A stretch of DNA of 32,000 bases. It comes from Patescibacteria group bacterium. GTDB taxonomy: Bacteria > Patescibacteriota > UBA1384 > XYA2-FULL-43-10. A program made the position numbers and the translations under genes. The first letter of the stretch is position 1. Every line of letters begins with the position of its first letter. Of this stretch, positions 10,355-32,000 are shown one piece after another. The notes under the pieces are model-generated. The model had not been told where the DNA came from and made no database searches. It worked only from the letters and a program-made list of their open reading frames with translations. Where the stretch lies: assembly GCA_041674405.1 (NCBI GenBank), contig JBAYVT010000002.1, positions 123,941 through 155,940 of the forward strand. Reading direction: 5' to 3'.

Positions 10355-10415
10355 ATTAACTAATATCTAATAACTAATAACTTAAAACCATTTGAATCAA
10401 AACATCTAAAGCTTT

Positions 10416-10814
10416 TCAATTTTTGAGTTGTATTTTTGATTTGTTTTTGTAATCCTCTATCGCCTTATGAATTCCTTCTGCTGATAGGATCGAACAATGA
10501 TACTTCTGAGCCGGTAATTTGCCCAAGGAGTCATTGATATCATCGCGAGTAATTTCAAGCGCTTCATCCAAAGTTTTGCCCTTAGAAAGATCCGTCATCA
10601 TCGAGCTTGCGGCGATTGCTGCGGCACAACCAAGTGTTAAAAATTTAACATCCTCGATATATTCTTTGCCGTCCTTTTTTCCAACTTTGATAGTAATTTT
10701 CATCATATCGCCGCATTTCGGATTGCCGACCTCGCCAATTCCATCGGCATTTTCAATTTCCCCCACATTGTGAGGGCTTGAAAAATGTTTCATTACTTCA
10801 TCACTATATTGCAT
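10416..10814 (-). CDS. iscU: Fe-S cluster assembly scaffold, IscU/NifU N-terminal type
   Basis: 132 aa with three conserved Cys contexts: GNPKCGDMM, LTLGCAAAIA and KYHCSILSAEG. Confidence 0.85.
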   Translation of the reverse strand: MQYSDEVMKHFSSPHNVGEIENADGIGEVGNPKCGDMMKITIKVGKKDGKEYIEDVKFLTLGCAAAIAASSMMTDLSKGKTLDEALEITRDDINDSLGKLPAQKYHCSILSAEGIHKAIEDYKNKSKIQLKN

Positions 10815-10938
10815 ATGCTCCTTATGTAAAAACTTAAATGTAATAACTAATTGAATTACTCCATTGGTTCTTAGATTTAAGTTATTAGTTTTTAGTTAAT
10901 TGTCCTATGGTTTTTCGTTTTTCGATATTAGTTTTTAG

Positions 10939-12201: not shown

Positions 12202-12422
12202 TTATCTTCCTTTGATTTCTCAACGATCGATACTACTTTTCTTAAATCAGAAACGCACTTCTTGCAATTTTCCTGTTTGGACAAATTATCAAAATCAGAT
12301 TTAGATATTAAATAAGCCACCGGCTTGGAATACCTGACAACCTCAAACACATCTCCGTCCTCAACTTCTTTAAGAACCTTAGAAATGTTATTTTGCAATT
12401 CGTTTACGTTGATATTTTTCAT
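12198..12422 (-). CDS. Phd/YefM-family antitoxin-like protein (no cognate toxin gene adjacent)
   Basis: The N-terminus of this 74-aa ORF, INVNELQNNISKVLKEVEDGDVFEVVRYSKPVAYLISKSDFDNL, matches the YefM/Phd pattern (compare E. coli YefM [45 protein letters not shown]). Confidence 0.6.
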   Translation of the reverse strand: MKNINVNELQNNISKVLKEVEDGDVFEVVRYSKPVAYLISKSDFDNLSKQENCKKCVSDLRKVVSIVEKSKEDK

Positions 12423-12511
12423 TGGCTTTCGGCACTAAAATTATACTCATCTAAGGTAACATCTTAGGTAGATTTAGTCAATAGATACAAATATAAATAA
12501 TATTTAGAATC

Positions 12512-15500
12512 TTAAGATTTAGAATTTCTCTTTTCCATCTCAATCTTTTTATTTACGGCAGAAATTTCTTCATCCGTATCAAACCTTACCGGTTTTGGCA
12601 GAGTGTAACCTTCCTTGGTAGCTAAAATTGTGTACCTACCCCGTTTCAAAATCGCCGAAAACTTACCTTTGTCATCAGTTACCGCAGTCTTTACAAGCCT
12701 TGTGTTATCTCCGGTCATTATCCTAACCAACGTTAGGCCGATAGGCTCGCCCTTATGTCGGTCTACCACCATGCTCCATGGCGACTTTCTTATGACCAGT
12801 GAGAAATTGATAACCCAAAGCAGAATATAGCCGGCAAGGATCAGATAATTTAACAAATTTGGGTCATGAATTAAATTGTTCAAGACCAATATGGTACCGG
12901 CCGTAAGTACAACAATCGAAGCATAATTGAAGAATCTTTCCATTTTTCTAAGCCAACCCAAGATTGCATGAATACCAGAAAGGCTTTTGCCATTTATACT
13001 CATTATGATCGTCGGCACCAAAAATCCTTTGGTATAGCTATCAATCTCATATATTTTCCCTGTGTCAAAATCATAATATTGATCCGGTTTTGGTGCGAGC
13101 TGGTACTTGTCTTTCTTCGCGATGATTTTGTATTTGCCCGGAGGTTCGGCGAATCCGTACACGCCTGATTTATCGGTGGTTGTTGTCTCAATAACCCTTT
13201 CTGTGCCATCTTCGCCTACTTTAATCAAGCTAACCATCGCTCCAGAAAGCGGCAAACCGGTTCCATCCTCGAGCACTTGGCCCCATTTTTTGCGTTTCTT
13301 TTTAACCGTACCGAAAGATAGAATGGAATAAACAATTATATGAATGACTTCCTTGAGTGAGAATAAAGTTATTAAGTTTGTTGCGGGTGCCAATCCGGCG
13401 ACAACTACTGCCATGCCCAGAGCTGCTGCGGCAGTCACTGGCGGAGCAGCCTCTTTTGAGATACCAACAGCTGCATAAACTTTTTCTATTCCCCCTGCAA
13501 CAATATCGATTGAAACCGCCACATCTTCGACGCCGCCGACAATGCCACCAATAATAACTTCACCGATTGTTTCTTTTCGTACATTTACTGACGCAGCAGC
13601 CTTCACATCACCGAATGAAGCTTGAACGGTGTTTTCAAATGAGCCAACTTCCTTACCTGCGGTGAATAATCCGGTTTGGTCAATCTCCCCGCCACCATTC
13701 ATAACCGACCACACGATAATTGCTGTTGGAATTTCTGAATCATCTGAGGCAAAAGCTTTTGCACTAAACTGCACGGAGTCTTCAACTTTTATTTTCGCAC
13801 TTGTCGGTGAAATGATAATGTATGATGCAGTTTTTTCCGGATTTCCCAGAGTTGTCACCTCAGACGCAGTAGAAAAATCAGTTTCAACGTTGCTATTATT
13901 TCTTGCCTTAAGCCTATAAGCATAATTCGTAGAAGCTGCAAGGCCTGTGTTTATAAATCCGTCGCTTCCACCCCAGTCGGCATACAATTGCCAATCGGGA
14001 CTATCGGAAAATGCCCCATCGGAATGCCTGACATACTTACCTGCGGTGTCATTGTAAATCGCATATCGTGTGTTAGCTGGGTTGCCGTTTTGGTTAATCG
14101 CAATTTTTACTGATGACTCGGAAACTACTGAAAGAATTGGGGCATCTGGTGTGTTCGCAAGAGTATAAGATGTAGCAAAATTTGACTTTTCCGTTCCTTT
14201 CCTATTGGTCACGGTAACTTGGCGAGTATATGCCGTATTCGGAGCAAGAGATTGTTCTAGCCAGGACGAGGCAGAAGCTGCAAGTGTTCCCGAGAGCGGA
14301 TTGCCAGCGGCATCTAACACTGCCCAACTGGTGTGATCATCGTCGGTATTTGACCAAACCCAATTAATCTGGCTGGTAACAATGTCTGTTCCCCTGAAAT
14401 CTGTAGAGGGTGTAGGCCCAAGGCAATTCGCCGTTGTGAAATTTATGATTGCAGAATAATTCCCCGCGCCATTCTGGTTTGACGTTGCGGACACCTTGGC
14501 GTAATACTTTGTTTTTCTTGCAAGGCCCGATAAAGAAGTGGCTGTTGTGCTGATATCCGAAATTGTGCCTTTATTTGAAGCTCCGGAATCCGTTCCGTAC
14601 GAAAGAGTATATTTATCCGCGCCCTCTGGCGCAATCCATGTCAGGTTCGCCGAAGTTCTGCAAACGGCATTTGCTTCTAGGCTCGCTGGAGCAGCTGGCG
14701 GAGTGACTTTTGCCGAAGATGGAGAATAAGTTGTGTCGGTATTGTCCCCATTTCTTGCTTTGGCCTTGATCCAATACTGGGTATTTGGATCAAGATTAGC
14801 CAATGTATATGATGTACTTGTCTGCCAGGACATGCCGGCGGGATCGGTAAAATCCGTGCCATTTATTGAATATTGGATCCAATAGTTTGTTCCTGATGGA
14901 TTCAAACTTGGGCTAATTGTTCCTGTTACGAAATATGCCCCCGCCACCGTTGAAACCGTCGGCATATTGGCAAGCGTGTACTTTGGAGATGAATAGGCGC
15001 TTGTTGAGTTGCCGGCGTCATTAAACGCAACAACTTTAGCACAATATTGTGTATTTATATCCTTACCATCAACGTCTTGCGAGGTTTCCCCGGCACCAGT
15101 CGTATAGTCGGGAGAATCTGGATAAGAAGCCTGTGAACAATCAGAATTCGGAGTGGTAGAAATATAAACCTTGAATCCGGTTTCATCAGATGAGTTGTCG
15201 TCCCAAGTCACTTGGAAAGAATCGTTTTGGATGGTGCCTATTGCTGCATTAGTTGGCGCACTCGGCGCTGTAACACAAGAGCCGGTGGGAGAAATATTCC
15301 AATCGGTATTACTTCCCCCATCCGTAGAATAAGTAGCACAGAAAGAGGCACCCGAATTGGTAGAATTTGAGATGGTGGCGTACGAAATAGTTGCGGTGGC
15401 CGGGTTAATATTCCAGCCACCAGAACCACCAGACCTCTTAAGAACTACATGGCTTCCCGAAGTTCCGGTTACCGTCCATGTGCCAGATATCGTTTGGGTC

Positions 15501-18500
15501 GAGCCCGCAGAAAAGGATAAGGTTTTGCCTGCAGTAGCGGCAGTGAGGTTATTAAAAGTCGTATCTCCCTCTATCAAGGAGTCACCAGTTAGCGTAACTG
15601 TACCGCTCCCAGGAGTGAAGATACCGCCTGCATGGTTCCAACCGCCAGATACACTCATGGTGGATGGAGCACTGAAGCTAGCATTACCGTTTAAGATGAA
15701 ATTACCAATGTTCATCGAAGGGTTATTTGTGATTCCATCAACATCGGTCTGGTTGGTTCCATCACCAATTGTAAGATTGTTAGTAACACCAAAGCTACCG
15801 GAAGATAGAGTCAAAGTTTTGTTTCCAACAAAGCTCTGCCAGATAAAACCGGTCATATCGCCAAAAGAGTGATAAGGACCTGAACCAACATTATAGGTAC
15901 CAATGACGGCACCAGTCGAGCCGTTAAGCTTTGTTATGGTGTTGCCGCCAATGCTCGTTACCCATACATTGCCGTCGCCATCAATTCCCGGATGGTCGCC
16001 ATTGCCGATCGAATAAGTTCCGATTACTGCACCAGTCGAGCCGTTAACTTTGTAGACCGTTCCGCTATTAACAACCCAGACATTGCCGCTGCCATCAACT
16101 GCCAGATTAGCACCAGGAACCGAGTAGATATCAATGACAGCGCCGGTCGAACCGTTAAGCTTGGTAATGCCAATATCGCCGTCGCTAGCCGTCCAGACAT
16201 TCCCATCACCGTCGACTGCTATGCTAAAAGGAGCGCCGTTAACCGAATAAGTGCCGATCAGTGCACCAGTTGAGCTGTCAAGTTTAGTAACGTTACCACT
16301 TCCGTGATTGCAAATCCAAACATTGCCACTACGATCAGCCGCCACTCCCGAAGGACTAGTACCCGTTGAATATGTGCCCATGACTGCACCAGTCGAGCCA
16401 TTAACCTTATTAATATGGCTGCTATCGTAGGGGACCCAGACATTGCCAGCATTATCAACGCCCGGGTTACCACCACCGACCGCATAAGTGCCGATCAGTG
16501 CGCCGGTCGAACCATTGAGTTTAGTAACGTTGCCGCTGTAAGGATTGCCGACCCAGACATTGCCACTGCCATCAACTGCCACACCATAAGGACCAGTACC
16601 CACCGCGTAAGTTCCAATGACGGCACCAGTTGAACTGTTAAGTTTGGTTATATTGTTGCTACCGCTATTAGTCACCCAAACATACGGTGTTACCGCTGGA
16701 TCCAGCAATTCTAGGTTATAATAATTTGCCGCCGTAATGTTTGTGTTAGAAGAAGCACGATATATAAAGGTAGAAGTCGAAGCAGTAAATGTACCCGTTT
16801 TAACAAACGGCGTGCCCGAACCGGTCAAAGTTATTGTCCGATTTGAAGCATCGAAGGTACCAGCATTGATCGTCAGTATGTTTGTAGTTGTGATATCCCC
16901 GGCTGCAGTGAAAGTCGTTCCCGCATGATCAAGGTAAAGATTGTAGTAAGTGGTCGCCGTAATATTAGTTGCCAATGCTCCGGTATACTTGAGGGTTGAT
17001 GTGCCCTCTTGGAAAGTTCCGGTTACTACCAATGGCGTTCCTGGCGCGGCCAAAGTAATCGTTCTGGAGGATGCAGCAAATGTGCCGGCATTGATGGTAA
17101 GGACTCCATTGATTGTGATATTTCCGGCAGCAGTAAAGGTTGTGCCGGTATGGTCTGCAGCGTAGAGGTTGCAATAGGTAATAGCATTAATGTTTGTTGC
17201 GCTTGTTCCTTGGAATTTGACTGTCGATGTACTTTCGGTAAATGTGCCGCTGATGGATAGTGGATCACCTGATTCTGTCAAAACTAAGGTAGTATTATCC
17301 AGATTGACAACAGCAGTTGCCGGGATTTTAAGATTTGGGATAGTGGAGGTGGGAGCAGATGATGAATTAGGTCTCCAGGTATCAGTGCCTATGACATAGA
17401 GTATCTGGGAGGTTAGAGTTGCTTGATTGTAGGGCATAGCTAGGTCATTGGTTGCATTACCAATATCAAAGAGGATATCAGCATCAGACGAAACTGAACC
17501 ATCGTATTGTGATAAATCGGTATTGGATAGTGTTTGGGCAGTACCATTACCGACGACCAAATGCTGCTCAAAGAGAGTAACTCCAGTAATATCTCCCGAT
17601 GTGTACTTGGTAACAGCATTGGCTCGATGGGATTCAGTCGCGCCATCGATGAATACCGTAATTACATCACCGGCAGAGGGTTCGGTAACGCCAGAAATCG
17701 TCCAGGAACCAGAAGCAGTGGTGCCTGTAGCTGCATCCAAGGTGCCATTGATCGCTACCTTGACCGTCTCACCATCAGCACAAGCGGTTGATTCATCATA
17801 CTGCTTACAAGTGCCGGAGATAGAGAAGGATGAACAGCCACTTGTTACAGTTGGAGCAGGAAGGGTACCATTGAACGAGGTCCAAGTCCCAGTCGTTGGC
17901 AAGACAGTGGGAGCACCGGCACTACCCCAGTCCACATAAGCCGACTGATCAGCAGGCGCAAGAAGTTTGCTGGTGTCCGACAACAGGTACCAACTACTGT
18001 CCCATGGATCTACTGCCAAAACCCTATTACTTGTATTGGTGTAATAAGGATTACTCCTAGCATCTACACTCGCATAAGTATACGACCCATTATAGCTTGA
18101 ATCGCCCGCTCCAGAAAAAGTATACGACGAACATGCGGAGCATGATCCGGTTAAACTAATATTCCAGCCGGTATTTCCCCCGCCGTCAACTGAGTAAGTC
18201 GCACAGAAACTACCTGTATTACTAGACTTAGAAACATTGGCGTAGGATATTGCAACATTATTACTTGCAGATAAATTCCAGTTGGCACCGCCCGATGGAG
18301 CTAAAGTAATTAAGTTACCGGAAGTCCCAGCAATATTAATTGCATAATTGAAATTATAGTTTGAACCCGAGTTGAAAGTTAGGGTTGAGGGCGCAGTTGT
18401 GTTGGTAAATGTACGCGTGACCGACGTTGCCCCAGTGAAGGTGAAATTTGTATTAGCATGCTCAGCCGTAAGGTTGTAATAAGTTACTGGTGTAATATTT

Positions 18501-21500
18501 GTTGCGGAAGAACCTGTATATTTTATCGTTGAAGTCGAGTAAGTAAATGTACCTGTGGCTACGAAAGGTGTACCTGATCCAGACAAAGTGATGGTTTTAT
18601 TTGATGCATTAAATGTGCCGGCATTTATTGTCAAAACATTGTTTGCGGTGATGTCGCCCGCCGCAGTGTAGGTTTGGCCAGCTTTATCGATGTAAAGATT
18701 GTAATAGGTCGCAGAAGTTACATTAACCGGACCTGTACCTGTGTATTTTACAGTTGAAGTAGAAGCGGTGAATGTTCCGGTTTTAACAAACGGCATGCTA
18801 GTTCCAGATAAAGTAATTGTCTTATTTGATGCATCAAAGGTTCCGGCATTGATGGTAAAAACACCAGTTCCGTTTGAACCAGTTGAGATATCACCGGCTG
18901 CTGTAAAAGTTGTTCCTGCGTGATCTAAATAAAGATTATTATAGGTAGTTGATGCAATATTAGTCGCAGAAGCGCCTGTGTATTTGACTGTGCCAGTCAT
19001 ACACTGAAATGTACCGTTGATCACAAACGGCGTACCAGAACCGGAAAGGGTGATGGTACCTGTCGGCGAATCATTAAATGTACCAGCATTAACGGTGAAA
19101 ACATTTGTTGATGTAATATCCCCTGCTGCGCTAAAGATGGTCCCTGCACGATCTAAATAAAGATTGTAATAGGTAGTCGCTGTAATATTCGTTGCCAACG
19201 AGCCAGTATATTTAACTGTGGATGTAGAAGGTGTAAAAACGACATTATTTACAAAAGGAGTACCTGATCCAGACAAGGTAATAGTTTTATTGGACGCATC
19301 GAAAATCGAGTCATTGGTCAAAACATTAGTGACATTTATATCGCCCATGGCTGTAGATACTGCTGTGGTTACTAAGTGGAGGTTGTAATAGGTGGTAGAG
19401 GCAATGTTTGTTGCCGCTGCGCCGTAATATTCTACGGTTGAAGTTGATGCCGTAAAAGTACCAGTAACAACAAATGGCGTTCCCGTTGACATGAATGTAA
19501 TAGTCTTATTAGAGGCATCAAAGGTGCCAGCATTGATGGTAAAAATATTTTCCACCTTGATATTTCCAGCCGCAGTAAATGTAGTACCTGCATGGTCCAG
19601 ATACAGATTATAATAACCAGGAACCATTCCCGAACCCATTGCAGTTACGTTTGTCGCCGAAGCACCGGTATATTTGATCGTTGAAGTTGAAGATTGAAAC
19701 GTTCCGTTATTAACAAATGGCGTGCCCGAACCAGATAATGTGATTGTTTTATTGGATGCATTAAATTCACCAGTGGTAATGCTTAAGACACCAGATACAT
19801 CAATATCGTTATTTGCTGTCCAAATCCCCGAGCCATCATTGAAGGTCAAATTATTAAAGGCCGATCCTCCCGTCATATTTCCGGAAAGAGTTTTATCAGC
19901 TCCACCCGTCTGAAAAGTAACGGTTCCGGAATTGTTGTCAAATGTTCCGCTTGAATGATTCCAATTTCCATTAACAATAAAATTATTAGATGATGCGGGC
20001 GCACTTAATGACCCGCCCGAAATTGTGACATTACCAGCACTAATATCATGTGCCCCAGCGGTTAAGGTACCGGATGAAACAAGGAGATTGTTTGTAACAT
20101 CAATATTGCTGGAAAGAGACCAGGCTGAAGATGGGATCGAATAATAAATCGTGCCTCTTACATAATTTATAATTGCATTTGAAACAGATGGAGTTATTTT
20201 CTTAATTGTCATCGCAACGCCAAAGCTTGAATCGTTAACATCATTTGGCGTCCAAGTTAATCCCCACAGATTTCCATCCCCACCAAACGGAACATAATCC
20301 TCTGTCCCCGACCATAATGCATCCGCAGATTGATTGGTGCCCCCAATGGTACCAGACTTAATGATTTCAATAATATCATCGGAAACAGGAGGCGAACTAC
20401 CCATCCTTTTTGCTTCCATTTTAATACCTGTAACCGTTGCATTGGTTGGAATATTAAAACCAAAATTTGTCGCTTTTAGATAATTAGAGCGTTTTCCTTG
20501 GGGAATACCAACAATTCTCGCATAATTTCCATCATCAGCAGTGATATCTTCGGGAGTTGACCAAGGACCATCTCCATAGCTTGCATCATTGGTTCCTGTT
20601 CCACATCCCAATGTGGAACTAGTACTTCCCCCGCCGTTCTCACCTGCGATTGTAAGATTATAAAATTTCTGCCCAGAACCCAATATGATTGAGAAGTCTC
20701 CGCTTGTCCCATTAAAATTTATTGTAGAATTTCCTTCATTGAAAGTAACATTTGAAGAATCCCAATCACCTGCAATATTAATTATGTGGCTTCCAGGGCT
20801 AAAGCTACCTGACGTCATAGTAAAACCATCCGCAATCGTAATATCTCCAGCTGCAATAAAGTCTGTATTCGCATGGTTGATGACTAAATTATTATACGTC
20901 ACGGAAGCCAAATTTGTATCTGATGATCCTTCGTAGGAAATTGTTGAAGTTGACGGAGTAAAGGTACCGGTCACAACAAACGGGGTTCCACTCCCTGATA
21001 AAGTAATGGTTTTATTGGAAGCATCAAATGTGCCTGCATTGATAGTAAGGACTCCAGAAACGGTAATGTTCCCTGCTGCAGCAAAGGTAGTACCAGTCTT
21101 GTCTGCCGCGTAGAGATTGTAATAAGAAAGAGCATTAACATTCGTAGCGCCTGATCCCTGGAATTTAATGGTGGAAGTGCCAATTGTGAAGGTGCCGGTG
21201 ATAGAAAGTGGTGTGCCGGAGGCGGTTAATGCTAGTGTTGTGCCGGTAAGGTTGACGATGGCTGATGTCGGAATTACAAGGTTAGAAATGGTGGATGTTG
21301 GAGCATCAGTAGCAGCCGGTTGCCAAGTGTTGGAAGCCAAAACATAAAGCTTCTGGTCGGTATCTGTTTGGGTGCCTGACTCGGGCAGTGTTAAGTCTTT
21401 GGTTGTGGCATTAACTTCAAAGAAGATATCTTCATCAGACGAGACAGAGTTATCGTATTTCTCCATATCAGCATTTGAAAGAGTTTGGTTATCAGCTGAA

Positions 21501-24500
21501 CCGATGGATAAATGTTTTTCATAAAGTGCTATGCCGGATACATTACCGGAGACATACTTTGTCACTGCATTTGCTTCATTGGCATCAGCAACACCATCGA
21601 CAAAGATGGTGATAGTGTCGCCAGCCGATGGGGCTGTTACTCCGGTGATAGACCAGGACCCGCTTGAAGTTGTACCGGTAGCCGCATCGAGGCTCCCATT
21701 GATTGCTACTTTGATCGTTTCGCTGTCAGCACAATTCGAGGATTCGTCATATTGTTTGCAGGTACCGGAGATGGAGATGCTGGCCGGCGGAAATGCCCAA
21801 TGATGGTTATTTCCACCGTCATATCCGCCAGTCGTGGCATTTACCAAGCTTCCTCCAGTTGCATCGGAATCGGTGACATTAACATAAGAAGCAGGTGGGC
21901 TATCCTGGACAACATTAAAATTCCAATGGTTGGTAGGTGTAGATGAAACCATAAATATTCTAGTACCTACTGCTCCGCCATTGATATCAAGGCCCATGAT
22001 TGAATAAGTTGATCCAGCATGGAATGTAAGTTTAGAGGAAGGGGTAGTATCAGTAAAGACCCCATTGATAGTTGCCGAATCTGCAAAATAAACACCATTT
22101 GCCGACGCATTAGTAATAGTAATGCTGTTAAAATCATGATTTCCATTTGTTCCACCAGCAGTGATGGTCTGTAAATCACTACCATCCAAGGTTAGTGTTC
22201 CGGTACCAGAAGTAAAGATGCCAGTGGCCGAATTCGTATAATCGCCTGCAAGATAAAATGCAGCCGTACTTGAAGCCGTGAGAGTATTACCAGCGTCAAT
22301 AATAACATCTCCATCAACGTTAACTATGGGATCGTTTGTTTCGAATGACAATACGGCAGTTAATGCGCCTCCTCCAACATGCAAATTATTTGAAACATTT
22401 AAAGTGCCTGCCTGAACATTATGGGTACCTGAAAAATTTTCACGCGCTATCTGAAGGTTATAATATGTAGTCGCGGTTACATTTACAGCGGCGCCGACTG
22501 GGTCCGGGCAATCATAAAATAATGTTGAATTGTTGGCAGTGAAAGTGCCGTTGATCACAAAAGGAGTGTTAGTTCCTAATAGTGTAATTGTTTTATTTGA
22601 AGCGTCGAATTCACCTGCATTAATTGTTAAAAGATTTGAAACAGTCATATCCCCAGCCGCGGTAAAAGTCGACCCAGTTCGATCAAGATAAAGATTGTAG
22701 AATGTCGTCGCCGTCACATTTGTCGCAGATGAACCCTTATACTGAACGGTAGATGTGCCCTCCTGAAAAGTAGCGTTTATATTCACAAAAGGCGTGCCTG
22801 AGCCATTCAAAACAATTGTTTTATCGGAGGCATTAAAGGTTCCTACATCTAGCGTCAAAACGCTGCCAACGGTAATATTTCCAGCTGCGGTAAAGGTGGT
22901 ACCAGTATGAACCAAATATAGATTATAATACGTCGCACTAGTTACATTGGTAGCGCTCGATCCGGCATACTTTATGGTTGAAGTAGCTTCTTGAAAAGTA
23001 CCATTTACAACAAAAGGTGTACCAGAACCATATAGATAAACTGTCTTATCCGATCCGTTATATATCGTCCCGGTCTGAATAGTGAAAACTCCGTAGACCG
23101 AGAACGAGCCGGAAGAAAGCGGAGTAAATGTCGTGCCCGAATGGTCGAGGATTAGATTGTGGAACCCGAGTAACGCAACGTCAGTTGCTGACGCACTCTG
23201 ATATGTGACGGTTGAAGTGTCGTAATTGAAGGTACTGCCCGTCTCCATTCTAAGAGGCCTCGACGAACTTTGTCCTGAGCCAGTAATTACTAAAGAATTA
23301 TTATCCAATGTCATCGTAGACGATGCTTCGGCATATGATTTCGGCACAGTTGATGTGGTTCCACCACCGGATGCAGGCCGCCATGTATTATTTGCCTTAA
23401 TTATAATCTTTTGGTCTGCATCAGTTTGGGTTCCGACTGCCGGCAGGGTTAGATTGTTTGATCCGTCAATTTCGAAAAAGATATCTTCATCGGAGGAGAC
23501 GGAATTATCGTATTTAGAGATATCGTTGTTCGATAATGTTTGATTATCGTCAGAACCTAGATACAAATGCTTTTCGTAAAGGCTAATTCCTGTAATATTG
23601 CCCGAACCATCGTATTTGGTAACAGCATTCGCTTCGTTACCGTCAGCCACTCCATCGATAAATACGGTAATTGTGTCCCCAGAAGCAGGTGCTGTAACAC
23701 CGCTTATGCTCCACGAACCTCCGGATGTGGTTCCGGTTTGGGCTTGAATAGTACCATTTACCGCAACTTTTACAGTCTCTGAATCAGCGGCATTTGTCGA
23801 TTCGTCATATTGCTTAGCAGTCCCTGAGATTAAAATTGTGGCAGGCCCACCTCCGCCTTCAGAAATAATAACCCCCGGCTCGACTTCTCCTGAAGCATCC
23901 CAGTCGTAAGGAGTCGGGTCACTAACTGGATCAGCATTAAACCAAGTATACCCAGGGTAAAAACTACCCAAAGTTGATGAAACAGCCCAAGATCCTCCCA
24001 TATTTCCACTAAACCAAAGATAAGAGTTATTTTCATTTTTATAGACAGGGTACGGCGACGAACCGATATCTCCAAAGTATTGATCGTTATATGCAAACGT
24101 ACCATTTGCATTCGTATTACCAGCATTTGTGCCTGTATATGTATGGCCCGGATCTCCTCCCGGCGTTACGCCGCTTGGCGCCGGAGCGGTTCCCAGATTG
24201 GCCGTCCAGCTATTGCTTCCGGGAAGCGCGCCCTCCATAAGATAATAGTGTACATCCATCATCGCATCATTAAGAACGTCGCTAAGCATATATGCTCCGC
24301 CCCCGTCCCAGTACAAGTACATATTATTAGCGTTTTTCCAATAGTCACTTCCATAGGCATCCGTTCCGCCGTAAGAGTATTCGCCGTTATAATTGGCATC
24401 TCCTGCTCCCGCAACAGTCCATGTGGTTGTATTAGCAGCTAGAGCTTTAGGAGGCTTTTCAAAATTGATTGATGGGTTGACCATAACAAACCCAAGAACC

Positions 24501-24688: not shown

Positions 24689-24703
24689 TCCGTTTTATAT
24701 TTA

Positions 24704-27700
24704 TTAGGTAATTGATTTTTTCTTTAGTTCCAACTTTTTACGAAGTGCAGCCATATTATCTTGATTGGCAAATTCCACCGGATGATCAAGCTCATATCCC
24801 TCCTTCGCTGCAAAAATGTTATATTTGCCTTTCCTTAACATAGCAGAGAATTTTCCCTTTTGGTCCGAAACAGTAGTTCTGACTAGTTTGTGGCTGTCTG
24901 AATTCATCACCCGAATCAAGGTTAGAGGGACCGGCTCTCCGGTATTCGATTCAGCCACAATACTCCATGGCGAATTTCTAATGATGAAAGATGCGTTGAT
25001 AATCCAAAGCAAAAAGTATCCAACAACAATAACGTAATTTAAAAGAGTGTGCTCGTGTATGACGTTATTGGCCGCTAATATTGACCCGAGTGCAAGTAAT
25101 ACGAATGAAAAATATACAAAATATCTTTCTAATTTCCTAAACGATGCGACTAATTTTGCGATATTACCGAGCTTCTTTCCGTTGACGTTCATAATAATTG
25201 TGGGAACAATCAAACCTTCTTCGTAGCTCAAAACATTAAATATCTTTTTGGGGTCAAAGTTATAAAATTGGTCTTCAATAGATGCAACCGTGTGTTTTTC
25301 TTTGCTCGCAATGACACGATATTTGCCAGGTCCAGCAGCAAAACCATATACCCCGTCTTTATCAGTAAATGACGATTCTATGACTTTCTCAGTATCAGCA
25401 TCGTCCACCTTAACCAGGCTTACCTGAGCCAGATATAAGGGCATTCCTGTTCCATTTTCAATTACTCTTCCCCATTTTTTCTTCTTTCGTTTTAAAGTTC
25501 CAGCCGAAAGAATCGAGTAAGACAAAACATGATATATTTCATTCAGAGAAAACAGCGATGATGCTGTGGCCATCGGAGTCATTGCAGCTGCCATTCCAGC
25601 AGCACCCAGCGCTGCAGCTGAGGTTATTGGGGTCGCTGCTTGTTTAGATATCCCGACCGCTTGGTATATTTTTTCAATTTGTCCTGCAGTGGTATTAATG
25701 ACACCAGAAATTAACGTCGCACTCTTAACAATTCCATCGACTAAATTATTAATGATTGTATCGTTTTTTATAATAACGGTGGCGAAAGATTGGCTCTCAC
25801 CCACAGAGGCTTCAATTGTATTATTATATGTTCCAGTATCTGGTCCCGCAGTGAAAAATCCATTTTTATCGATTGCTCCGCCTCCATTTACCACTGACCA
25901 AACAATATTGACGTTGGATATTTCTTTGTTATCTAAAGTGAATGCTCGGGCTTTGAACTGAAGGGTTTCATTTGGCCCGATTGTGGCGGTTACCGGATCA
26001 ATGGCGATTGAAGCAATATTTGAAACAGGGCTATCTCCACCTTTTGGACTATCTGGAAGTGTTAAATTCTCTCCGGGCGATGAGAAAGAAGTTTCTATGC
26101 TATCTCCATTTTTTGCCTTAACCAGATAATCATATTGCGTGCCGACCAAAAGATTGTAATTAATAATGCCCGAACTTCCCCCCCACACGTTTCGCGTTTG
26201 CCAAACGGCGCTATTGCCCAGGGATCCATCAGCTTGCACATACTTTCCGGAAGTTTGATTATAGATAGCGTATTGGGTCGAAGGCGGATTGTTATTTGAG
26301 TTGATGATGATCTTTAAAGAATTACTAGATAATGCATTGACCATCGGTGCATTTGGTTGATTAGCCAGCGTGTAGAAAGGAGCAGTATATGATCCAGGCG
26401 AGTCATTACCAGAATTGGTTGCCGTAATTCTGGCGCAATATTGAGTATTAACACTTTTTCCTGAGATAAATTGCGAGGTCGTATTTGCACCCAAAGCATA
26501 ATCCGGGTAATCCGGATATGAGGCAAACTCGCAATTATCACTTGTGGCAGTTGAAATAAAGATATTAAAGCCAGTTTCGCTTGAAGAGTTATCGATCCAA
26601 TTCAGAGTGAAGAAAGTTGTGTCCACCCCTACAACCGAAGCCCCTGTGGGGGCAGCAGGGGTCGCTTCGCAGATCGTAGATGAACCAATCTGCCAGCCAA
26701 TATTACCCCCCACATCAATAGAATAGTTTGCACAGAATTGGATTCCTGAATTAGTTGATTGAGAAATTGAAGCGTGAGAAACTACGGCTTTCGCCGGATT
26801 TATTATCCAATTTCCTGAACTGCCAGACCCTCGTAGATTAATATTGTGGCCACTAGACCCAGAAATACTCCATGTGCCGGTAATTGTTTGGGTTGAGCCG
26901 GCTGAAAAAGATATGGTCTTTCCACCCGTAACGGCCGTGAGATTGTTGAAAGTGGTATTTCCCTGAATCAGAGAATCGCCATTCAAAGTTACTGTCCCGT
27001 TGCCGGGAGTGAACGTGCCACCATTATTGTTCCAGCCGCCCGAAAGATTAATGTTTGAGGGAGCGTTAAAGTTCGCATTACTCTTTAATGTAAAATTTCC
27101 GCCTATGTTAATTGTTGGATTATTTGCCAATCCGTCAACAGTGGTTTGATTAGCGCCATCACCAATCTGAAAATCGTTAGCGATATTAAACGTACCATTT
27201 GATAAAGTTAAAACTTTTGGATCGGCAAAAACTTGTCGAGCAAATCCTGTGGAATCTCCCATTGAAATATAGGGGTTGCTAACCGGGTAGGTACCGAGAA
27301 TTGCCCCTGTTGTTCCACTTAACTCCTTAATATTATTTGTATTGACCACCCAAGCATTGCCATTTTGGTCGATTGAGATACCATTTGGCCAACCATCTCC
27401 GTTAGCAAAGGTGCCAACAATATATGTACCCAGGACAGCACCGGTTGAGCCATTTAGCTTGCTCACGCTGTTGTCATAATGATTAGTGACCCAAACATTC
27501 CCAGATTGGTCAATGGCTATTCCATAGGGGTTTCCATGAACGGAATATGTACCTATAGTGGCGTTCGTCGAACCGTTAATTTTAGTAACGCTGTAATTGT
27601 CCCAGTTTCCTACCCAAGCATTACCGCTGCTATCGACTGCAATGCCCATTGGCCTGCTGCCAACCGCATGGGTAAAGATGGTTGCACCGGTCGTGCCATT

Positions 27701-30700
27701 CAGCTTCATAACATTATTACTTCCAGTATTTGCAACCCAGACGTTCCCGTCTCGATCAATTGCAATACCTTCAGGATTAATACCCACACCATATGTGCCG
27801 ATGGTTGCACCGGTCGCGCCACTTAGCTTGGTAACACTGCTGCCACCAGTATTAGTAACCCAAATATTCCCACTGCCATCGACTGCCACCCCCCAAGGAG
27901 CATTGCCAGTCGGGTATGTACCAATAGCAGTGCCTGTAGCTCCGTTAATCTTTGAAACGCTATTTGCCCAGTAATTCGCCACCCATAAATTATTATGACC
28001 ATCCACTGCGAGACCATAGCATGGGCTTTCTGACACCGGATACGAACCGACGGTTGATCCATTTGTGGTGTCAATTTTGGTAATTTTTGAATCGCTATTT
28101 ACAACCCAGACATATGGCGTAACAGCGGGATCGACCAATTGCAAGTTGTAATAGTCAGCTGCAGTAATATTAGTTTTATCGAAAACGTGATAAATAAACG
28201 TCGATGTGGAGGCAAGAAAAGTTCCATTGATAATAAATGGAGTTCCCGAACCCATCAGCGTGATGGTTTTATTTGATGCGTCAAAGGTGCCGGAATTTAT
28301 GGTTAGAGTTCCAATTGCAGTAATATCGCCCACAGCAGTGTATGTCGTTCCTGAATGATCGAGATAAAGGTTAAAGTATGTTGTGGCTGCTATGTTGGTT
28401 GCATTACTGCCGGAATATTTGAAAGTTGAGGTGCCGGGATCAAAAGTATCGTTTATAATAAATGGAAGGTTGGATCCTGAAAGCGTGATAGTTTTATCCA
28501 GCGCTGAAAAATTGCCTGTATTAATCGTTAGCACATTGCCAACATTAATATCGCCCAAGGCCGAGAAAATTGTGGCTGTATGATCAAGATAAAGATTAAA
28601 ATAGTTCGTCGGGGTGACATTGGTTGCCGATGATCCAGTATATTTAATCGTTGAGGTCGAAGGGGTAAAAGTTCCGGTTTTAACAAATGGCGTTGCCGAA
28701 CCTGTTAAATTGATTGTTCTATTAGATGCGTCAAAGGTGCCGGAATTGATTGTCAAAATATTGGATATTGTGATATCTCCAGCGGCAACAAAGGTTTCTG
28801 AGGCATTATCCAAATACAAGTTAAAGTAAGTCGTCGGAGCTACATCAATGTTGTGGTCGGGATAATTCCCCGTGTATTTGAAAGTAGAGGTAGAAGGATT
28901 TAATATTCCAGAGACTACAAGCGGGCCAGAAACACCCCCCGAAAGGGTAATCGTTCTCGAGAGAGCATTGAACGTTCCTGTGTTTATGGTGAAGATATTT
29001 GAGACAGCCATATCTCCTGCCGCCGAGAAAATGCTGCCCACATGGTCTATGTATAGATTATAGTAGGATGCCGCAACAACATTAACGGATAAATCGCCGG
29101 TGTATTTGAAAGTAGAGGTAGAAGATGTAAAAGTACCGGTAATTACCATCGGCGTATTCGGGCCAGACAATGTGATGGTCTTATTCGATGCGTCAAAAGT
29201 GCCAGAATTGATTGTCAAAACATTTGATGCGGAAATGTCACCGGCGGCAGCAAAGGTCGTTCCTGTGTGATCCAGATAAAGATTATAGAAATTTGTCCCA
29301 GTAATATTCGTGGCACTGGTTCCGGTATATTTGAAAGTAGAAGTAGATGGAGTAAGAATCCCGCTAACAATTAGCGGAGTGCCACTTCCCGACAGTGTGA
29401 TCGTTCTGTTTGAAGCATCAAATGTGCCTGCATTTATAGTAAATATATTTGATGCGGAAATGTCGCCTGCCGCTGTAAAGGTCGTTCCTGTATGGTCAAA
29501 ATAAAGATTATTGTAAGTCGATGCTGTGACATTTGTAGCCAAATTACCACTATATTTGATGGTGGAAGTTGAAGGAGTAAAAGTGCCAGTTTTAACAAAT
29601 GGCGTACCGCTCCCTGCAAGCGTAATGGTCTTGTTGGAGGCATCGAAGATACCGGAGTTTATTGTAAAAATTCCAGTACAGGTAAAATCACCTGCCGCAG
29701 TAAAGGTATTGCCAAAACGATCAAGATAAAGATTATGGTAGGTAGTAGCCGCAATATTCGTTGCGCTAGTTCCCGTATATTTAAAAGTCGATGTTCCCTG
29801 AGAAAAGGTGCCATTGACAATAAAAGGTGCAGTTGAGCCAGCTAAAATAATTGTCTTGTCAGAAGCATCAAACGTACCAGCATTGATCGTGAAAACTCCA
29901 TTTACGTTGATGTTTCCCGCGGCAGTAAAGGTAGTGCCAGTATGATCGGTATAAAGATTGTAATAAGTTGCAGCCGCAATATTGGTAGCGCTGGTTCCTT
30001 GAAACTTAACTGTGGAGGTGCCATATGTGAACGTACCAGTTTTTAGGAGTGGATCTCCAGAACCGGTTAACACTAGTGTTGTATTATCTAGATTAACAAT
30101 CGCAGAGGCTAGAATCACTAGGTTCGGCATGGTTGAAGTTTTTGCAAAAACTGAATTCGGCCTCCAGGTATTTGATGGAAGAACGATAAGTTTTTGATCG
30201 GAGTCAAATTGCGTTCCTTGGGCTGGCAAGGTAAGATTAACGGTCGAATCGTCGACGTCGAAAAAGATGTTTTCGTTGCCAGAAACAGAATTGTCATAAG
30301 CCGCAATATCCGCATTCGACAAAATCTGATGGTCGTCAGAACCGATTGTTAAATGTTTTTCGAAAAGATCGCACCCAGTCATATCCCCTGTGCCATCGTA
30401 CTTGGTGACCAAATTCGCTTCATGGGCGTCAGCTACACTATCAATAAAAATAGTTACGGCATCACCAGGATTGGGTTGGGTGACCCCAGTGATTAACCAG
30501 GATCCACCCGATGTGATTCCGGTTTGGCCGACCAGAGCATTGTTCACGGCCATTTTTACAATTTCACCATCAGGGACATTCGTCACCTCATCATACTCTT
30601 TAGCATCGCCGGAAACATTTACTATTCCGGCAACACATGTGTCACCCGCACCAATATTCCATCCGACATTACCCCCTCCATCATTTGAATATGTAGCGCA

Positions 30701-32000
30701 GAAAGCTGTTCCAGCATTGGTTGACCCGGAAACATCAACGTAAGTTACAGCTGTAATTACCGTCGGAGTAATGATCCAGTTAGCATCGGAGGTCGGCGCA
30801 AGAGTAATAAGACCACCACTAGTCCCAGCAATATTTATGGTATTGAATGTATATGTAGAGCCAGAACTAAAGGTAATCGTGGAGGGAGAAGTAGTATTCG
30901 TAAAAATACCGCTTGCCGCTGCATTACCGGTAAAAATAAAATTAGTAGCAGCATGATCTAAAGTTAAATTTTTGTAAGATTGGCTGGAGATATTTACACT
31001 ATCAGCGCCAGTGTATTTTACGGTCGAGGTTGAGGCGGTGAACGACCCAGCAACAGCAAACGGCGTACCCGATCCGGATAAGGTGATGGTCCTGGTTGAA
31101 CCATGAAAGGTTGTTCCTGCTGTAACCGTTAGTACCCCCGAAACTGTCATGTCACCCGCTGCGATAAAATATGTGCCTGAATGATCCAATAGCAGATTAA
31201 AGTAATTGGTCCCTGTGACATTAGTTGTTGAGGCCTGTGTGTATCTAAAGGTGGAAGCCGAAGGAATAACACTACCGTTAACCACGAACGGTGAGGTTGA
31301 AGTAGTAAAACTCCAAATGGTGTTGCCAGCATCTAACGTTTGGCTTGCCGCGACAGTCATGACGCCACTTATACTAATATTATTCGATCCAATTTTGGTT
31401 GTGGTAGTTGTTCCGGAACCATCACCAAAAACCAAATTCACAAAGGTCCAGTCGGTACTGCCACCAAAATTTCCAGTGCCATCTACGCGAAAAGTACCAG
31501 TAAAAGTAATGGTGCCATCCCCTGATATGTCACCACCATTGATATAGAAAGTACCTCCACCGATTAATGTACCTGCAGTTGCCGTAAAATCACCATTGAG
31601 AGTGATTGAGCCGCTTATAGAGTAAGTTTCAGCAGCATTATTGATCTGAAGATTATTGTACGTAGTAGCAGCAATAGTTATATTGCCTGACGCGTAATTT
31701 CCCGAATAGATGAATGTTGATGTACTCGGGGTGAAGGTGCCTGTTTTAACAAATGGCGTACCGGTAGTGCCGGATAAATTAATCGTATAATTCGAAGCAT
31801 CAAGTGCAGCTCCAGAACTAATAGTCAAGACGCCAGAAATTGTAGTATCAGAAGCCATTGTGGCTACCGCTGAACTAGTTGTCGAAATCTTCAAATTGTA
31901 ATAAGACACAGCTGAAACGGTTTGGCCTGAAGTACCGGTGTATTCGATAGTTAGGTTCGTATACGTCTTATTGGCAATTGAGTATTGGGTTAGGAAATCA
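24704..32000 (-). CDS. giant repeat-rich cell-surface protein, paralog of the downstream gene (more than 2431 aa; N-terminus outside window)
   Basis: The listed GTG at 31909 is not the true start. The frame stays open to base 32000, reading ...IEYTGTSGQTVSAVSYYNLKI, which continues the repeat. The domain order matches the 4058-aa protein, and its stop lies 15 nt before that gene's ATG. Confidence 0.9.
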   Translation of the reverse strand, partial: DFLTQYSIANKTYTNLTIEYTGTSGQTVSAVSYYNLKISTTSSAVATMASDTTISGVLTISSGAALDASNYTINLSGTTGTPFVKTGTFTPSTSTFIYSGNYASGNITIAATTYNNLQINNAAETYSISGSITLNGDFTATAGTLIGGGTFYINGGDISGDGTITFTGTFRVDGTGNFGGSTDWTFVNLVFGDGSGTTTTTKIGSNNISISGVMTVAASQTLDAGNTIWSFTTSTSPFVVNGSVIPSASTFRYTQASTTNVTGTNYFNLLLDHSGTYFIAAGDMTVSGVLTVTAGTTFHGSTRTITLSGSGTPFAVAGSFTASTSTVKYTGADSVNISSQSYKNLTLDHAATNFIFTGNAAASGIFTNTTSPSTITFSSGSTYTFNTINIAGTSGGLITLAPTSDANWIITPTVITAVTYVDVSGSTNAGTAFCATYSNDGGGNVGWNIGAGDTCVAGIVNVSGDAKEYDEVTNVPDGEIVKMAVNNALVGQTGITSGGSWLITGVTQPNPGDAVTIFIDSVADAHEANLVTKYDGTGDMTGCDLFEKHLTIGSDDHQILSNADIAAYDNSVSGNENIFFDVDDSTVNLTLPAQGTQFDSDQKLIVLPSNTWRPNSVFAKTSTMPNLVILASAIVNLDNTTLVLTGSGDPLLKTGTFTYGTSTVKFQGTSATNIAAATYYNLYTDHTGTTFTAAGNINVNGVFTINAGTFDASDKTIILAGSTAPFIVNGTFSQGTSTFKYTGTSATNIAATTYHNLYLDRFGNTFTAAGDFTCTGIFTINSGIFDASNKTITLAGSGTPFVKTGTFTPSTSTIKYSGNLATNVTASTYNNLYFDHTGTTFTAAGDISASNIFTINAGTFDASNRTITLSGSGTPLIVSGILTPSTSTFKYTGTSATNITGTNFYNLYLDHTGTTFAAAGDISASNVLTINSGTFDASNKTITLSGPNTPMVITGTFTSSTSTFKYTGDLSVNVVAASYYNLYIDHVGSIFSAAGDMAVSNIFTINTGTFNALSRTITLSGGVSGPLVVSGILNPSTSTFKYTGNYPDHNIDVAPTTYFNLYLDNASETFVAAGDITISNILTINSGTFDASNRTINLTGSATPFVKTGTFTPSTSTIKYTGSSATNVTPTNYFNLYLDHTATIFSALGDINVGNVLTINTGNFSALDKTITLSGSNLPFIINDTFDPGTSTFKYSGSNATNIAATTYFNLYLDHSGTTYTAVGDITAIGTLTINSGTFDASNKTITLMGSGTPFIINGTFLASTSTFIYHVFDKTNITAADYYNLQLVDPAVTPYVWVVNSDSKITKIDTTNGSTVGSYPVSESPCYGLAVDGHNNLWVANYWANSVSKINGATGTAIGTYPTGNAPWGVAVDGSGNIWVTNTGGSSVTKLSGATGATIGTYGVGINPEGIAIDRDGNVWVANTGSNNVMKLNGTTGATIFTHAVGSRPMGIAVDSSGNAWVGNWDNYSVTKINGSTNATIGTYSVHGNPYGIAIDQSGNVWVTNHYDNSVSKLNGSTGAVLGTYIVGTFANGDGWPNGISIDQNGNAWVVNTNNIKELSGTTGAILGTYPVSNPYISMGDSTGFARQVFADPKVLTLSNGTFNIANDFQIGDGANQTTVDGLANNPTINIGGNFTLKSNANFNAPSNINLSGGWNNNGGTFTPGNGTVTLNGDSLIQGNTTFNNLTAVTGGKTISFSAGSTQTITGTWSISGSSGHNINLRGSGSSGNWIINPAKAVVSHASISQSTNSGIQFCANYSIDVGGNIGWQIGSSTICEATPAAPTGASVVGVDTTFFTLNWIDNSSSETGFNIFISTATSDNCEFASYPDYPDYALGANTTSQFISGKSVNTQYCARITATNSGNDSPGSYTAPFYTLANQPNAPMVNALSSNSLKIIINSNNNPPSTQYAIYNQTSGKYVQADGSLGNSAVWQTRNVWGGSSGIINYNLLVGTQYDYLVKAKNGDSIETSFSSPGENLTLPDSPKGGDSPVSNIASIAIDPVTATIGPNETLQFKARAFTLDNKEISNVNIVWSVVNGGGAIDKNGFFTAGPDTGTYNNTIEASVGESQSFATVIIKNDTIINNLVDGIVKSATLISGVINTTAGQIEKIYQAVGISKQAATPITSAAALGAAGMAAAMTPMATASSLFSLNEIYHVLSYSILSAGTLKRKKKKWGRVIENGTGMPLYLAQVSLVKVDDADTEKVIESSFTDKDGVYGFAAGPGKYRVIASKEKHTVASIEDQFYNFDPKKIFNVLSYEEGLIVPTIIMNVNGKKLGNIAKLVASFRKLERYFVYFSFVLLALGSILAANNVIHEHTLLNYVIVVGYFLLWIINASFIIRNSPWSIVAESNTGEPVPLTLIRVMNSDSHKLVRTTVSDQKGKFSAMLRKGKYNIFAAKEGYELDHPVEFANQDNMAALRKKLELKKKSIT
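24707..25700 (-). other. paralogous C-terminal membrane module of the second giant protein
   Basis: Same order and motifs: KRKKKKWG, GMPLYLAQVSLVKV...TDKDGVYGF...GKYRVIASKEKH, two TM helices, then GEPVPLTLIRVM...SDQKGKFSA...GKYNIFAAKEGY. It appears more than half identical to 12515-13560 by eye. Confidence 0.6.
27245..28125 (-). other. beta-propeller region (same blade family) within the second giant protein
   Basis: Blades follow GNxWVxNxxxNSVxKxNGxTGAxIGTYPxGxxPxGIAxDxxGN, running from PYVWVVNSDSK to NPYISMGDSTGF. Confidence 0.65.
28145..30060 (-). repeat. coding tandem array of the same 75-aa repeat in the second giant gene, about 8-9 units
   Basis: Nine Y(Y/F/H/N)NL(Y/Q) motifs lie between the CKQYDE-like module and the propeller. 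The Asn codons at 28145 and 28370 are exactly 225 nt apart. Further degenerate units lie at about 30960-32000. Confidence 0.8.

Follow-up and report, generated by a model that had tools for sequence, protein, structure and literature searches.

The stretch of DNA considered here comprises 32,000 nucleotides (nt) from a Patescibacteria group bacterium (assembly GCA_041674405.1, contig JBAYVT010000002.1, positions 123,941 to 155,940 of the forward strand), and the whole of it is referred to as the window. Two consecutive giant genes, designated A and B, take up most of this DNA. Their products are read here, with a probability of roughly 60%, as giant rod-like surface proteins of Patescibacteria, representing a family with two conserved ends and a freely shuffled ectodomain, and with a role in attachment. 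Giant consecutive and giant membrane-anchored proteins are already known, and what appears undescribed is the pair of end modules. Cultivated Patescibacteria grow attached to bacterial hosts, and their host-contact molecules are largely undefined beyond type IV pili and a few adhesins from transposon sequencing (Tn-seq; PMC10633639).

Two tandem giant genes and their modules

The two genes are placed as follows, with lengths in amino acids (aa).

12512..24688, minus strand: gene A, complete; 4058 aa from an ATG start, or 4055 aa from a GTG at codon 4
24704..32000, minus strand: gene B, 3' part only; at least 2431 aa, frame open to the window edge

Gene A adjoins gene B on the downstream side and is read from the same strand. 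The 15-nt gap between them (TAAATATAAAACGGA) was inspected and contains no terminator-like site, and its shortness suggests that the two genes are co-transcribed. Together they account for 19,489 of the 32,000 nt, or 61% of the window. An earlier examination of the letters alone, hereafter the sequence-only reading, had described two tandem paralogous genes of this extent and spacing with a common order of modules; coordinates, lengths and spacing were confirmed, and the module order was reproduced by independent mapping. Matching modules of A and B are 43-62% identical, which indicates old paralogs that arose through an old duplication.

The sequence-only reading had also proposed a survey of related genomes for the gene pair. 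Among 14 loci with family members, neither a second member in tandem nor a conserved neighbouring gene was found, and the tandem pair is a lineage-specific duplication. Open reading frames of ~600 aa lying downstream of family members were considered as a conserved partner gene and rejected, because they are unrelated to one another (a beta-helix/DUF11 protein, an esterase and LepA).

Gene A has two conceivable starts (24677-24688, minus strand), namely the ATG at 24688, which gives the product of 4058 aa, and a GTG three codons downstream, which gives that of 4055 aa. The European Nucleotide Archive (ENA) record calls the GTG, and the exact 4058-aa product is not on record. The sole Shine-Dalgarno-like 'GGA' precedes the ATG by 1 nt and the GTG by 10 nt. 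In the case of gene B, the frame at 24704-31999 (minus strand) runs for 2431 codons without a stop when translated to the window edge. ENA contig ERZ27247358:k141_1736407 (137,857 bp) matches the window at 100% identity, with window position 32000 at contig position 19. The contig thus ends 18 nt past the window, and gene B is truncated by the contig end; in the ENA record, it is called from contig position 2 as a 2437-aa partial product.

It is extremely improbable that the giant genes are an artefact made of misassembled repeats or decaying pseudogenes. Such an explanation could draw on the fact that both public assemblies break within the giant genes, the ENA contig in B and the contig of an independent Logan assembly (SRR6484325) in A. 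However, the two assemblies agree at 100%, the Logan match covering window positions 4223-21524, and the frames of 12.2 kb and 7.3 kb are uninterrupted. Additionally, the intragenic DNA repeats share 62-71% identity, and no exact repeat exceeds 25 nt; they are therefore too diverged to mislead an assembler, which makes assembly collapse unlikely. The conserved end modules are also intact.

The modules of gene A, from the N-terminus to the C-terminus of the protein, are listed below.

24437..24688, minus strand: extended signal peptide, aa 1-84; motif ELDREIMKVQKSTRT...WHNALRMKFGWYYKWH, core at 52-70, then N-P, predicted site between KALA and A
23834..24436, minus strand: two small 'GAGD..YNG' domains, aa 85-285; mature N-terminus, predicted distal tip
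23309..23833, minus strand: CKQYDE-type module 1, aa 286-460
22355..23242, minus strand: 75-aa beta-helix repeats, block 1, aa 483-778, 4 units
21269..21790, minus strand: CKQYDE-type module 2, aa 967-1140
20798..21238, minus strand: 75-aa repeats, block 2, aa 1151-1297, 2 units
20159..20671, minus strand: insert domain, aa ~1340-1510; absent from the visible part of B
18398..19951, minus strand: 75-aa repeats, block 3, aa 1580-2097, 7 units
18131..18391, minus strand: cap 1 (FCATYSVDGGGNTGWNI) with the Cys2162/Cys2183 pair
17840-18130, minus strand: third 'GAGD..YNG' copy, aa 2187-2283
17309..17839, minus strand: CKQYDE-type module 3, aa 2284-2460; CnaB-like N-half, C-half running into the next beta-helix
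16712..17290, minus strand: 75-aa repeats, block 4, aa 2467-2659; modelled with pLDDT 90-97
15809..16711, minus strand: 7-bladed NHL/YVTN beta-propeller, aa 2660-2960
15269..15808, minus strand: divergent beta-helix and cap 2, aa 2961-3140 (FCATYSTDGGSNTDWNI)
13799..15268, minus strand: five FN3 domains, aa 3141-3630; counted by reading
13556..13798, minus strand: Big_2-like domain, aa 3631-3711; profile positions 2-70, not called by Pfam in A
12515..13555, minus strand: C-terminal anchor module, aa 3712-4058

The visible part of gene B follows the same order.

30896..31957, minus strand: 75-aa repeats, block 1, aa 15-368, 4 divergent units
30635..30895, minus strand: cap 1 (FCATYSNDGGGNVGWNI)
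30104..30634, minus strand: CKQYDE-type module (AKEYDE), aa 456-632
28136..30079, minus strand: 75-aa repeats, block 2, aa 641-1288, 9 units
27224..28135, minus strand: 7-bladed PknD-type NHL propeller, aa 1289-1592
26660..27223, minus strand: divergent beta-helix and cap 2 (FCANYSIDVGGNIGWQI)
26015..26659, minus strand: two FN3 domains, by reading
25745..26002, minus strand: Big_2-like domain
24707..25744, minus strand: C-terminal anchor module, aa 2086-2431; shares 51% identity with the module of A

The expansion of gene A described in the sequence-only reading is evident from this comparison, with three CKQYDE modules in A against one in B and five FN3 units against two. The insert, which had been called unique, is so within the visible pair; beyond it, this domain (A ~1340-1510) recurs at 36% identity in a giant protein of Saccharibacteria, encoded at a locus designated L025.

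Conserved ends of the protein family

The C-terminal module of A is built from an uncharged helix (3752-3778), an amphipathic extension, the cluster KKKRKK, a first beta-sandwich, a transmembrane (TM) hairpin (3919-3966) and a second sandwich, and in both A and B there are 0 residues beyond the module end. The first helix of A and its basic cluster read TAAAALGMAVVVAGLAPATNLITLFSL ... KKKRKKWG. This helix is Ala-rich and 27 residues long, with no charged residue in 20 of 20 members examined; a Lys/Arg cluster and then W/F-G come after it, and a 'SPW(G/S)' motif stands between the TM hairpin and the second sandwich. The two halves of the module look like a duplication.

An AlphaFold2 model, calculated from a 10-sequence alignment, begins with a long helix, after which a helical hairpin stands between two sandwiches. 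Its mean predicted local distance difference test (pLDDT) score is 65, with 70-84 for the sandwiches and the hairpin and ~40 for the first helix. In Foldseek, the sandwiches match transthyretin, the carboxypeptidase D regulatory domain and the CnaB/SdrD B domains, with E values down to 3e-6. At the level of sequence profiles, the Pfam family NOMO1-like_9th scores 29.4 bits in A against a cut-off of 27, and CarboxypepD_reg is above threshold in homologs (52-65 bits).

The distribution of this module was addressed by an exhaustive HMMER search, in which its profile was compared with 1.84 billion cluster representatives. There were 4316 matches at E<=1e-3 and 120 at E<=1e-30, many of them covering only the Big_2 part. 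In 68 of the best 150 representatives, the full module ends 0-45 residues from the C-terminus, and these proteins range from 237 to 5960 aa. Ten representatives were looked up; the organisms named were four Patescibacteria and one unclassified metagenome-assembled genome (MAG), 'bacterium ADurb.Bin400', and the annotations were merely Calx-beta, FN3-domain or hypothetical protein. The ectodomains of module-bearing proteins include Calx-beta, FG-GAP, InlB B-repeats, NHL and FN3. As it occurs under such varied ectodomains, the module is a portable C-terminal unit that is not peculiar to the A/B pair. Thus, the multi-TM C-terminus noted in the sequence-only reading is present, but it is no special feature of these two genes, being a conserved module common to many Patescibacteria proteins. 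Two other searches were less productive. A word-indexed protein search with the module gave one weak match, and its negatives for giant proteins are unreliable, as all its matches were shorter than 1000 aa whereas the exhaustive search found homologs of 2000-6000 aa; a profile scan of genome contigs with the A and B C-terminal alignment gave no relatives, its patterns being too specific.

The orientation of the module in the membrane can be predicted from its charges. Over 20 members, Lys and Arg together average 5.6 in the 10 aa after helix 1 and 3.8 in the 15 aa before the second TM helix (TM2), compared with 0.65 in the TM2-TM3 loop, 1.6 after TM3 and 0 in the 27-aa helix 1a. According to the positive-inside rule of von Heijne, which is well established, a module with this distribution would cross the membrane three times and have its two sandwiches in the cytoplasm. 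The alternative is a topology of four crossings in which both sandwiches lie outside. It is favoured by the fact that CarboxypepD_reg and transthyretin-like domains are usually extracytoplasmic, and the cytoplasmic placement relies on the charge bias together with a helix modelled at low confidence (pLDDT ~40).

Helix 1 also carries a conserved stretch, 'AP(I/L)ANAxTLFSLPE(Y/L)xRS' (A aa ~3765-3785), located inside or just past the first helix and before the basic cluster. The layout of 'APxANAxTLFSLPE' recalls the pattern of signature motif, TM segment and basic tail in the sorting signals of sortases and exosortases, and this stretch could be a processing site of a sorting enzyme. A regular-expression search of the last 450 aa detected no LPXTG, the sole similar string being LPLSG within the first sandwich of A, with none in B, and PEP-CTERM-like and RTX endings are absent from the C-termini of both proteins. 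The C-terminal module appears to be an undescribed, unnamed family. No description of the anchor or of the signal motif was met in the literature searched, which is not proof of absence.

The opposite end of the protein is conserved as well. The N-terminal module starts with ~50 basic residues containing (L/I)(D/E)xxIxxIQKST(K/R)T...HxxLRxKFxWYYxWH, which are followed by a hydrophobic core and then by N-P. Eight to 14 residues past N-P, an Ala is found at position -1 in 21 of 21 aligned relatives, and the residue at -3 is small or aliphatic. Such a -3,-1 pattern is that of a signal peptidase I site. The invariant Ala and the compatible -3 residue therefore indicate a site of this type, and the N-terminal TM segment is read as the core of a signal peptide. 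In gene A, the hydrophobic segment spans residues 52-70, and the predicted site lies after residue 84, between KALA and ANTTTW. Neither Pfam nor NCBIfam contains a model for the extended signal motif.

A hidden Markov model (HMM) of the motif matched 25 proteins, 22 of which also have the C-terminal module, and two of the remaining three run off the end of their locus. Among 46 family members with a recognisable N-terminus, 17 bear the extended motif (median length ~2400 aa) and 29 an ordinary signal peptide (median ~800 aa), with clear sites such as AYA before Q or ARA before E. Judged from sequence comparison, the N-terminal TM segment thus forms the core of an extended signal peptide, one that is probably cleaved and that is preferred by very large cargo.

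The sequence-only reading had regarded this segment as a second membrane anchor, and that view was not upheld. If the segment remained uncleaved, both ends would be tethered, the protein would form a giant extracellular loop, and the N-terminal motif would act together with the cytoplasmic sandwiches of the C-terminal module. The frequent co-occurrence of the two end modules (22/25) would fit this arrangement, and the long, conserved cytoplasmic motif suggests binding of a partner. Moreover, the predicted cleavage site lies 14 residues past the hydrophobic core, which is farther than in typical signal peptides. Nevertheless, double tethering is unlikely, since Ala at -1 is invariant and the -3 position compatible in 21 diverged sequences, and 29 family members have ordinary cleavable signal peptides. 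Extended conserved n-regions also occur in signal peptides that are cleaved, including the extended signal peptide region (ESPR), YSIRK and KxYKxGKxW types.

The combination of a probably cleaved, extended signal peptide with a C-terminal anchor has parallels in known systems. The YSIRK-G/S and LPXTG proteins of Firmicutes (MSCRAMM-type) likewise have a conserved signal-peptide motif, a C-terminal retention signal and a modular ectodomain with CnaB-type stalks; their ectodomain, too, is succeeded at its C-terminal end by a hydrophobic segment and then a basic cluster. A and B differ from them in having neither LPXTG nor a YSIRK match, and the sequence of their signal-peptide motif is unrelated. 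Furthermore, the YSIRK/LPXTG proteins are linked to the wall by sortase, whereas A and B would be held by an integral 3-TM module with two folded domains (347 aa in A). The ESPR, found on very large beta-helical adhesins of the autotransporter and two-partner secretion (TPS) type, resembles the N-terminus of A in being an extended, conserved n-region associated with beta-helical surface proteins of very large size. The two motifs differ in sequence, however, and A and B are predicted to be anchored in the cytoplasmic membrane; the organism that encodes them belongs to a group described as monoderm. No Pfam or NCBIfam match to a beta-barrel translocator or TPS domain was found in either protein.

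A more far-reaching interpretation, which must be regarded as speculative, is that the paired ends form an undescribed sorting and anchoring system specific to Patescibacteria. In such a system, the N-terminal motif would recruit a targeting factor for very large cargo, and the cytoplasmic transthyretin-like domains would couple the ectodomain to an intracellular partner, serving in signalling, positioning or force transmission on host contact. If this were true, a search with the end modules would list the displayed 'surfaceome' of any candidate phyla radiation (CPR) genome. If A and B are merely further modular adhesins, the result is a useful annotation, though an unsurprising one.

Ectodomain architecture and the proposed role in attachment

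Between the two ends lies an ectodomain dominated by 75-aa repeats, with 16 units in A (four blocks) and at least 13 in B. In the model, each repeat forms three coils of a beta-helix, and each coil contains three short strands, at a pLDDT of 90-97. The FCAT/NYS..GW (GGN.GW) caps occur at A 2161 and 3116 and at B 433 and 1755, and a second Cys follows 21 residues on in each. The modelled segment that covers a cap and the third small domain (model residues 1-210) has a pLDDT below 50, and its folds are left uninterpreted.

The CKQYDE-type modules start at A 291, 977 and 2294 and at B 466. In module 3 of A, the N-half is modelled as a beta-sandwich (pLDDT 83-93), and the C-half runs into the next beta-helix (pLDDT 90-97). 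The best fold matches of the sandwich are CnaB-type stalk domains of Gram-positive pilins; for 8bdw, the probability is 1.0 and the target-normalised TM-score 0.59, with a weak E value of 0.04. Pfam Cna_B gives no match to the module; many CnaB domains also contain an intramolecular isopeptide bond between Lys and Asp or Asn. According to these models, the CKQYDE module appears to be a CnaB-like sandwich leading into a beta-helix.

The cassette of a CKQ module and a beta-helix occurs in 1-3 copies per protein in giants of 1000 to more than 6500 aa, found in 29 GTDB species genomes. These genomes belong mostly to Patescibacteria (Berkelbacteria, Dojkabacteria, Saccharibacteria, Nomurabacteria and Moranbacteria), along with some Gammaproteobacteria and Nitrospirota MAGs. 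Among the CKQ giants of the 29 genomes, just one has the C-terminal module, namely the Saccharibacteria protein of locus L025. This giant also carries the N-terminal signal motif, and it shares with A the N-terminal region, the insert domain, the capped helix and the FN3 stalk. As CKQ giants seldom have the C-terminal module, the ectodomain cassette and the anchor combine independently. The small 'GAGD..YNG' domain opens the mature part of two further family members (P0105 and P0140), and this position fits the role of a distal tip.

Pfam, NCBIfam and PHROGs contain no model for the 75-aa repeat, the cap, the CKQYDE module, the small N-terminal domains, the insert or the N-terminal motif, and a BFVD search for viral folds returned nothing significant. 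This bears out the statement of the sequence-only reading that the core repeat units belong to no named family. The profile searches and structure prediction that it suggested gave a divided outcome, because the core units stayed without a name, but the folds of the propeller, FN3, Big_2 and sandwich domains are known and ordinary.

The propeller has seven blades of ~42 residues in each gene by our own count. In B, it matches Pfam NHL with 61 bits (cut-off 20) and TIGR02276 with 29.9 (cut-off 27.85). The closest solved relative is the sensor domain of PknD (1rwi; E 4e-18 for A and 1e-41 for B), and other solved relatives are the designer 'Pizza' proteins and the surface-layer (S-layer) protein 1l0q of Methanosarcina mazei (E 1e-16 for A and 3e-29 for B). 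The blades of 1rwi and 1l0q are NHL/YVTN blades of ~42 residues, as in A and B; PknD differs in having six blades fused to a kinase, whereas the propeller of A and B has seven and is embedded in a giant rod.

A further Pfam match raises the question of enzymatic activity. Vgb_lyase (PF24684) reaches 57.8 bits in B, above its cut-off of 50, and right-handed beta-helices are a frequent fold of polysaccharide lyases, so that the ectodomain might attack the host cell wall either through a Vgb-type lyase propeller or through a beta-helix acting as a polysaccharide lyase or hydrolase. Such an activity is highly unlikely. Gene A is below the Vgb_lyase threshold, and no lyase or hydrolase family matches the beta-helix. 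In addition, the solved Vgb structure 2z2n reaches only E 9e-9 with propeller B, with no single stretch passing, as opposed to 1e-41 for PknD; given this much stronger match, the propeller is read as PknD/NHL-type rather than as a Vgb-type lyase.

The stalk comprises FN3 and Big_2-like domains. Pfam fn3 (PF00041) matches A with 60.4 bits (cut-off 25) in 3 stretches, and 5 units are recognised by reading. The Big_2-like segment of A has a tblastn match in the Berkelbacteria locus L002, and the corresponding profile positions (2-70) match multi-copy Ig-like repeats in many proteins.

Taken together, these elements can be arranged into a proposed course of events. The protein would be exported by the Sec route by means of its extended signal peptide, the motif of which is conserved. 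Signal peptidase I would then cleave after Ala84, leaving the 'GAGD..YNG' domains as a free distal tip. At the other end, the 3-TM module, conserved in sequence and of recognisable fold, would hold the protein in the cytoplasmic membrane. Here, helix 1 would cross from the outside to the inside, followed by the Lys/Arg cluster, the first sandwich, the TM hairpin and the second sandwich. From the membrane outward, the ectodomain would consist of the Big_2 and FN3 stalk, the capped beta-helix, the 7-bladed PknD-type propeller, beta-helix rods joined by CnaB-like CKQYDE modules, and the tip domains, reaching ~50-100 nm by a rough estimate of our own. In the final step, the protein would mediate attachment, be it to a host or partner cell or to a surface, with A as an internally expanded paralog of B.

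The attachment role is derived from the adhesin-like architecture and from the fact that cultivated Patescibacteria live as epibionts and need adhesins for growth (PMC10633639). By analogy, adhesion or host contact is the most likely function, and the surface role proposed in the sequence-only reading remains the most reasonable one.

Several points weigh against this interpretation, in addition to those concerning membrane topology and the cleavage site given above. Localisation, cleavage and binding are deduced from sequence comparison and models. No ligand-binding domain of known specificity was found in the ectodomain, and the CKQ sandwich has a weak fold match (E 0.04). As the 5' end of B lies past the contig, the N-terminal signal is seen in A alone of the pair. 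Furthermore, short family members of ~400 aa are almost wholly 'anchor'; the C-terminal module may have its own function beyond tethering.

A different surface role can also be envisaged, in which many anchored copies form a structural envelope or S-layer-like coat, that is a protective or spacing layer. The second-best solved relative of the propeller, the Methanosarcina protein 1l0q, comes from such a layer, and C-terminal membrane anchoring is typical of archaeal S-layer proteins. The very large size of the genes and the large anchor family with its varied ectodomains are also in line with a coat. On the other hand, beta-helix rods with FN3, Big_2 and CnaB stalks are closer to fibrillar adhesins than to lattice formers, and no lattice-forming domain was recognised. 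The strong lineage-specific expansion and the divergence of the paralogs (43-62% identity) fit proteins of host interaction. A coat is therefore conceivable but considerably less probable than attachment.

Fibrillar attachment proteins of this size can be compared with other giants. In Apilactobacillus kunkeei, the consecutive genes of Giant1-5 likewise encode extracellular proteins with thousands of residues and take up a sizeable share of a small genome; they are set apart from A and B by domain repertoire and anchoring (PMC12863079). The giant membrane-anchored proteins of Omnitrophota (bioRxiv 10.1101/2023.11.21.568195) also come from uncultured bacteria and have TM regions near the C-terminus and beta-helical segments, but they are far larger, have an antiparallel beta-helix and contain SecA-like and enzymatic domains, none of which was found in A or B. 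With respect to RTX or LapA-type adhesins, no HemolysinCabind or related match was obtained in A or B, and their C-terminus is predicted to be membrane-embedded.

The practical value of these findings lies in the two end-module HMMs, a handle with which thousands of genomes of uncultured CPR bacteria can be searched for displayed proteins that are now annotated as 'hypothetical' or 'FN3 domain-containing'. They also lead to the prediction of a new anchor topology with cytoplasmic transthyretin-like domains, and they suggest a candidate for an extended signal peptide that, like ESPR and YSIRK, serves very large cargo, here in a monoderm lineage. Cultivated Saccharibacteria can be manipulated genetically. 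The L025 genome, which encodes a family member, is an uncultured Saccharibacteria MAG; should a homolog exist in a cultivated strain, the predictions may become testable there.

Genome context and other features of the window

The genes flanking the giant pair encode an ABC transporter, an HD protein, a methyltransferase, tRNA-Leu, ComEA, RecG, MnmA, FolD, IscU and IscS, and their products are deposited as MFA7244058-MFA7244066. The GC content of the window is 0.40-0.50, which is not strikingly AT-rich and does not bear out the AT-rich genome assumed in the sequence-only reading. A close kinship with Berkelbacteria was considered, given that the best match of a CKQ module (65%) is to a Berkelbacteria MAG, but was not adopted, as the RecG proteins of the two genomes are only 41% identical.

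The surroundings of the giant genes show a certain resemblance between genomes. In the Berkelbacteria locus L002 (JAPLVK010000021.1, 125-13351), RecG and ComEA are encoded directly upstream of a 3163-aa giant with three CKQ modules, and in the window, too, recG and comEA lie a few kb from the giant genes. In two loci from MAGs of other phyla (L001 and L008), recG also adjoins CKQ-containing genes. This proximity could reflect a loose conserved linkage or coincidence.

Between gene A and iscS, the public record places a gene for a 74-aa PhdYeFM-type antitoxin (12198-12422, minus strand). It overlaps the iscS start by 4 nt, and no adjoining partner toxin gene is apparent.

Another unusual segment is the gap of ~1.3 kb at 7115-8426, which separates recG (4988-7114, minus strand) from mnmA (8427-9536, minus strand). 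Its GC content is ~0.50-0.57, the upper figure being estimated by reading, compared with ~0.41 in the flanks, and it holds only Pro/Arg-rich, junk-like open reading frames. No Rfam family matches at gathering thresholds, and a permissive scan gave a sub-threshold ar14 hit of 24.8 bits against the required 58.8. The gap is identical in two independent assemblies, and the part at 7180-8130 folds far better than shuffled controls, with z values of -6.6 on the minus strand and -5.1 on the plus strand. This segment may represent a large structured non-coding RNA absent from Rfam, or a foreign GC-rich insertion.

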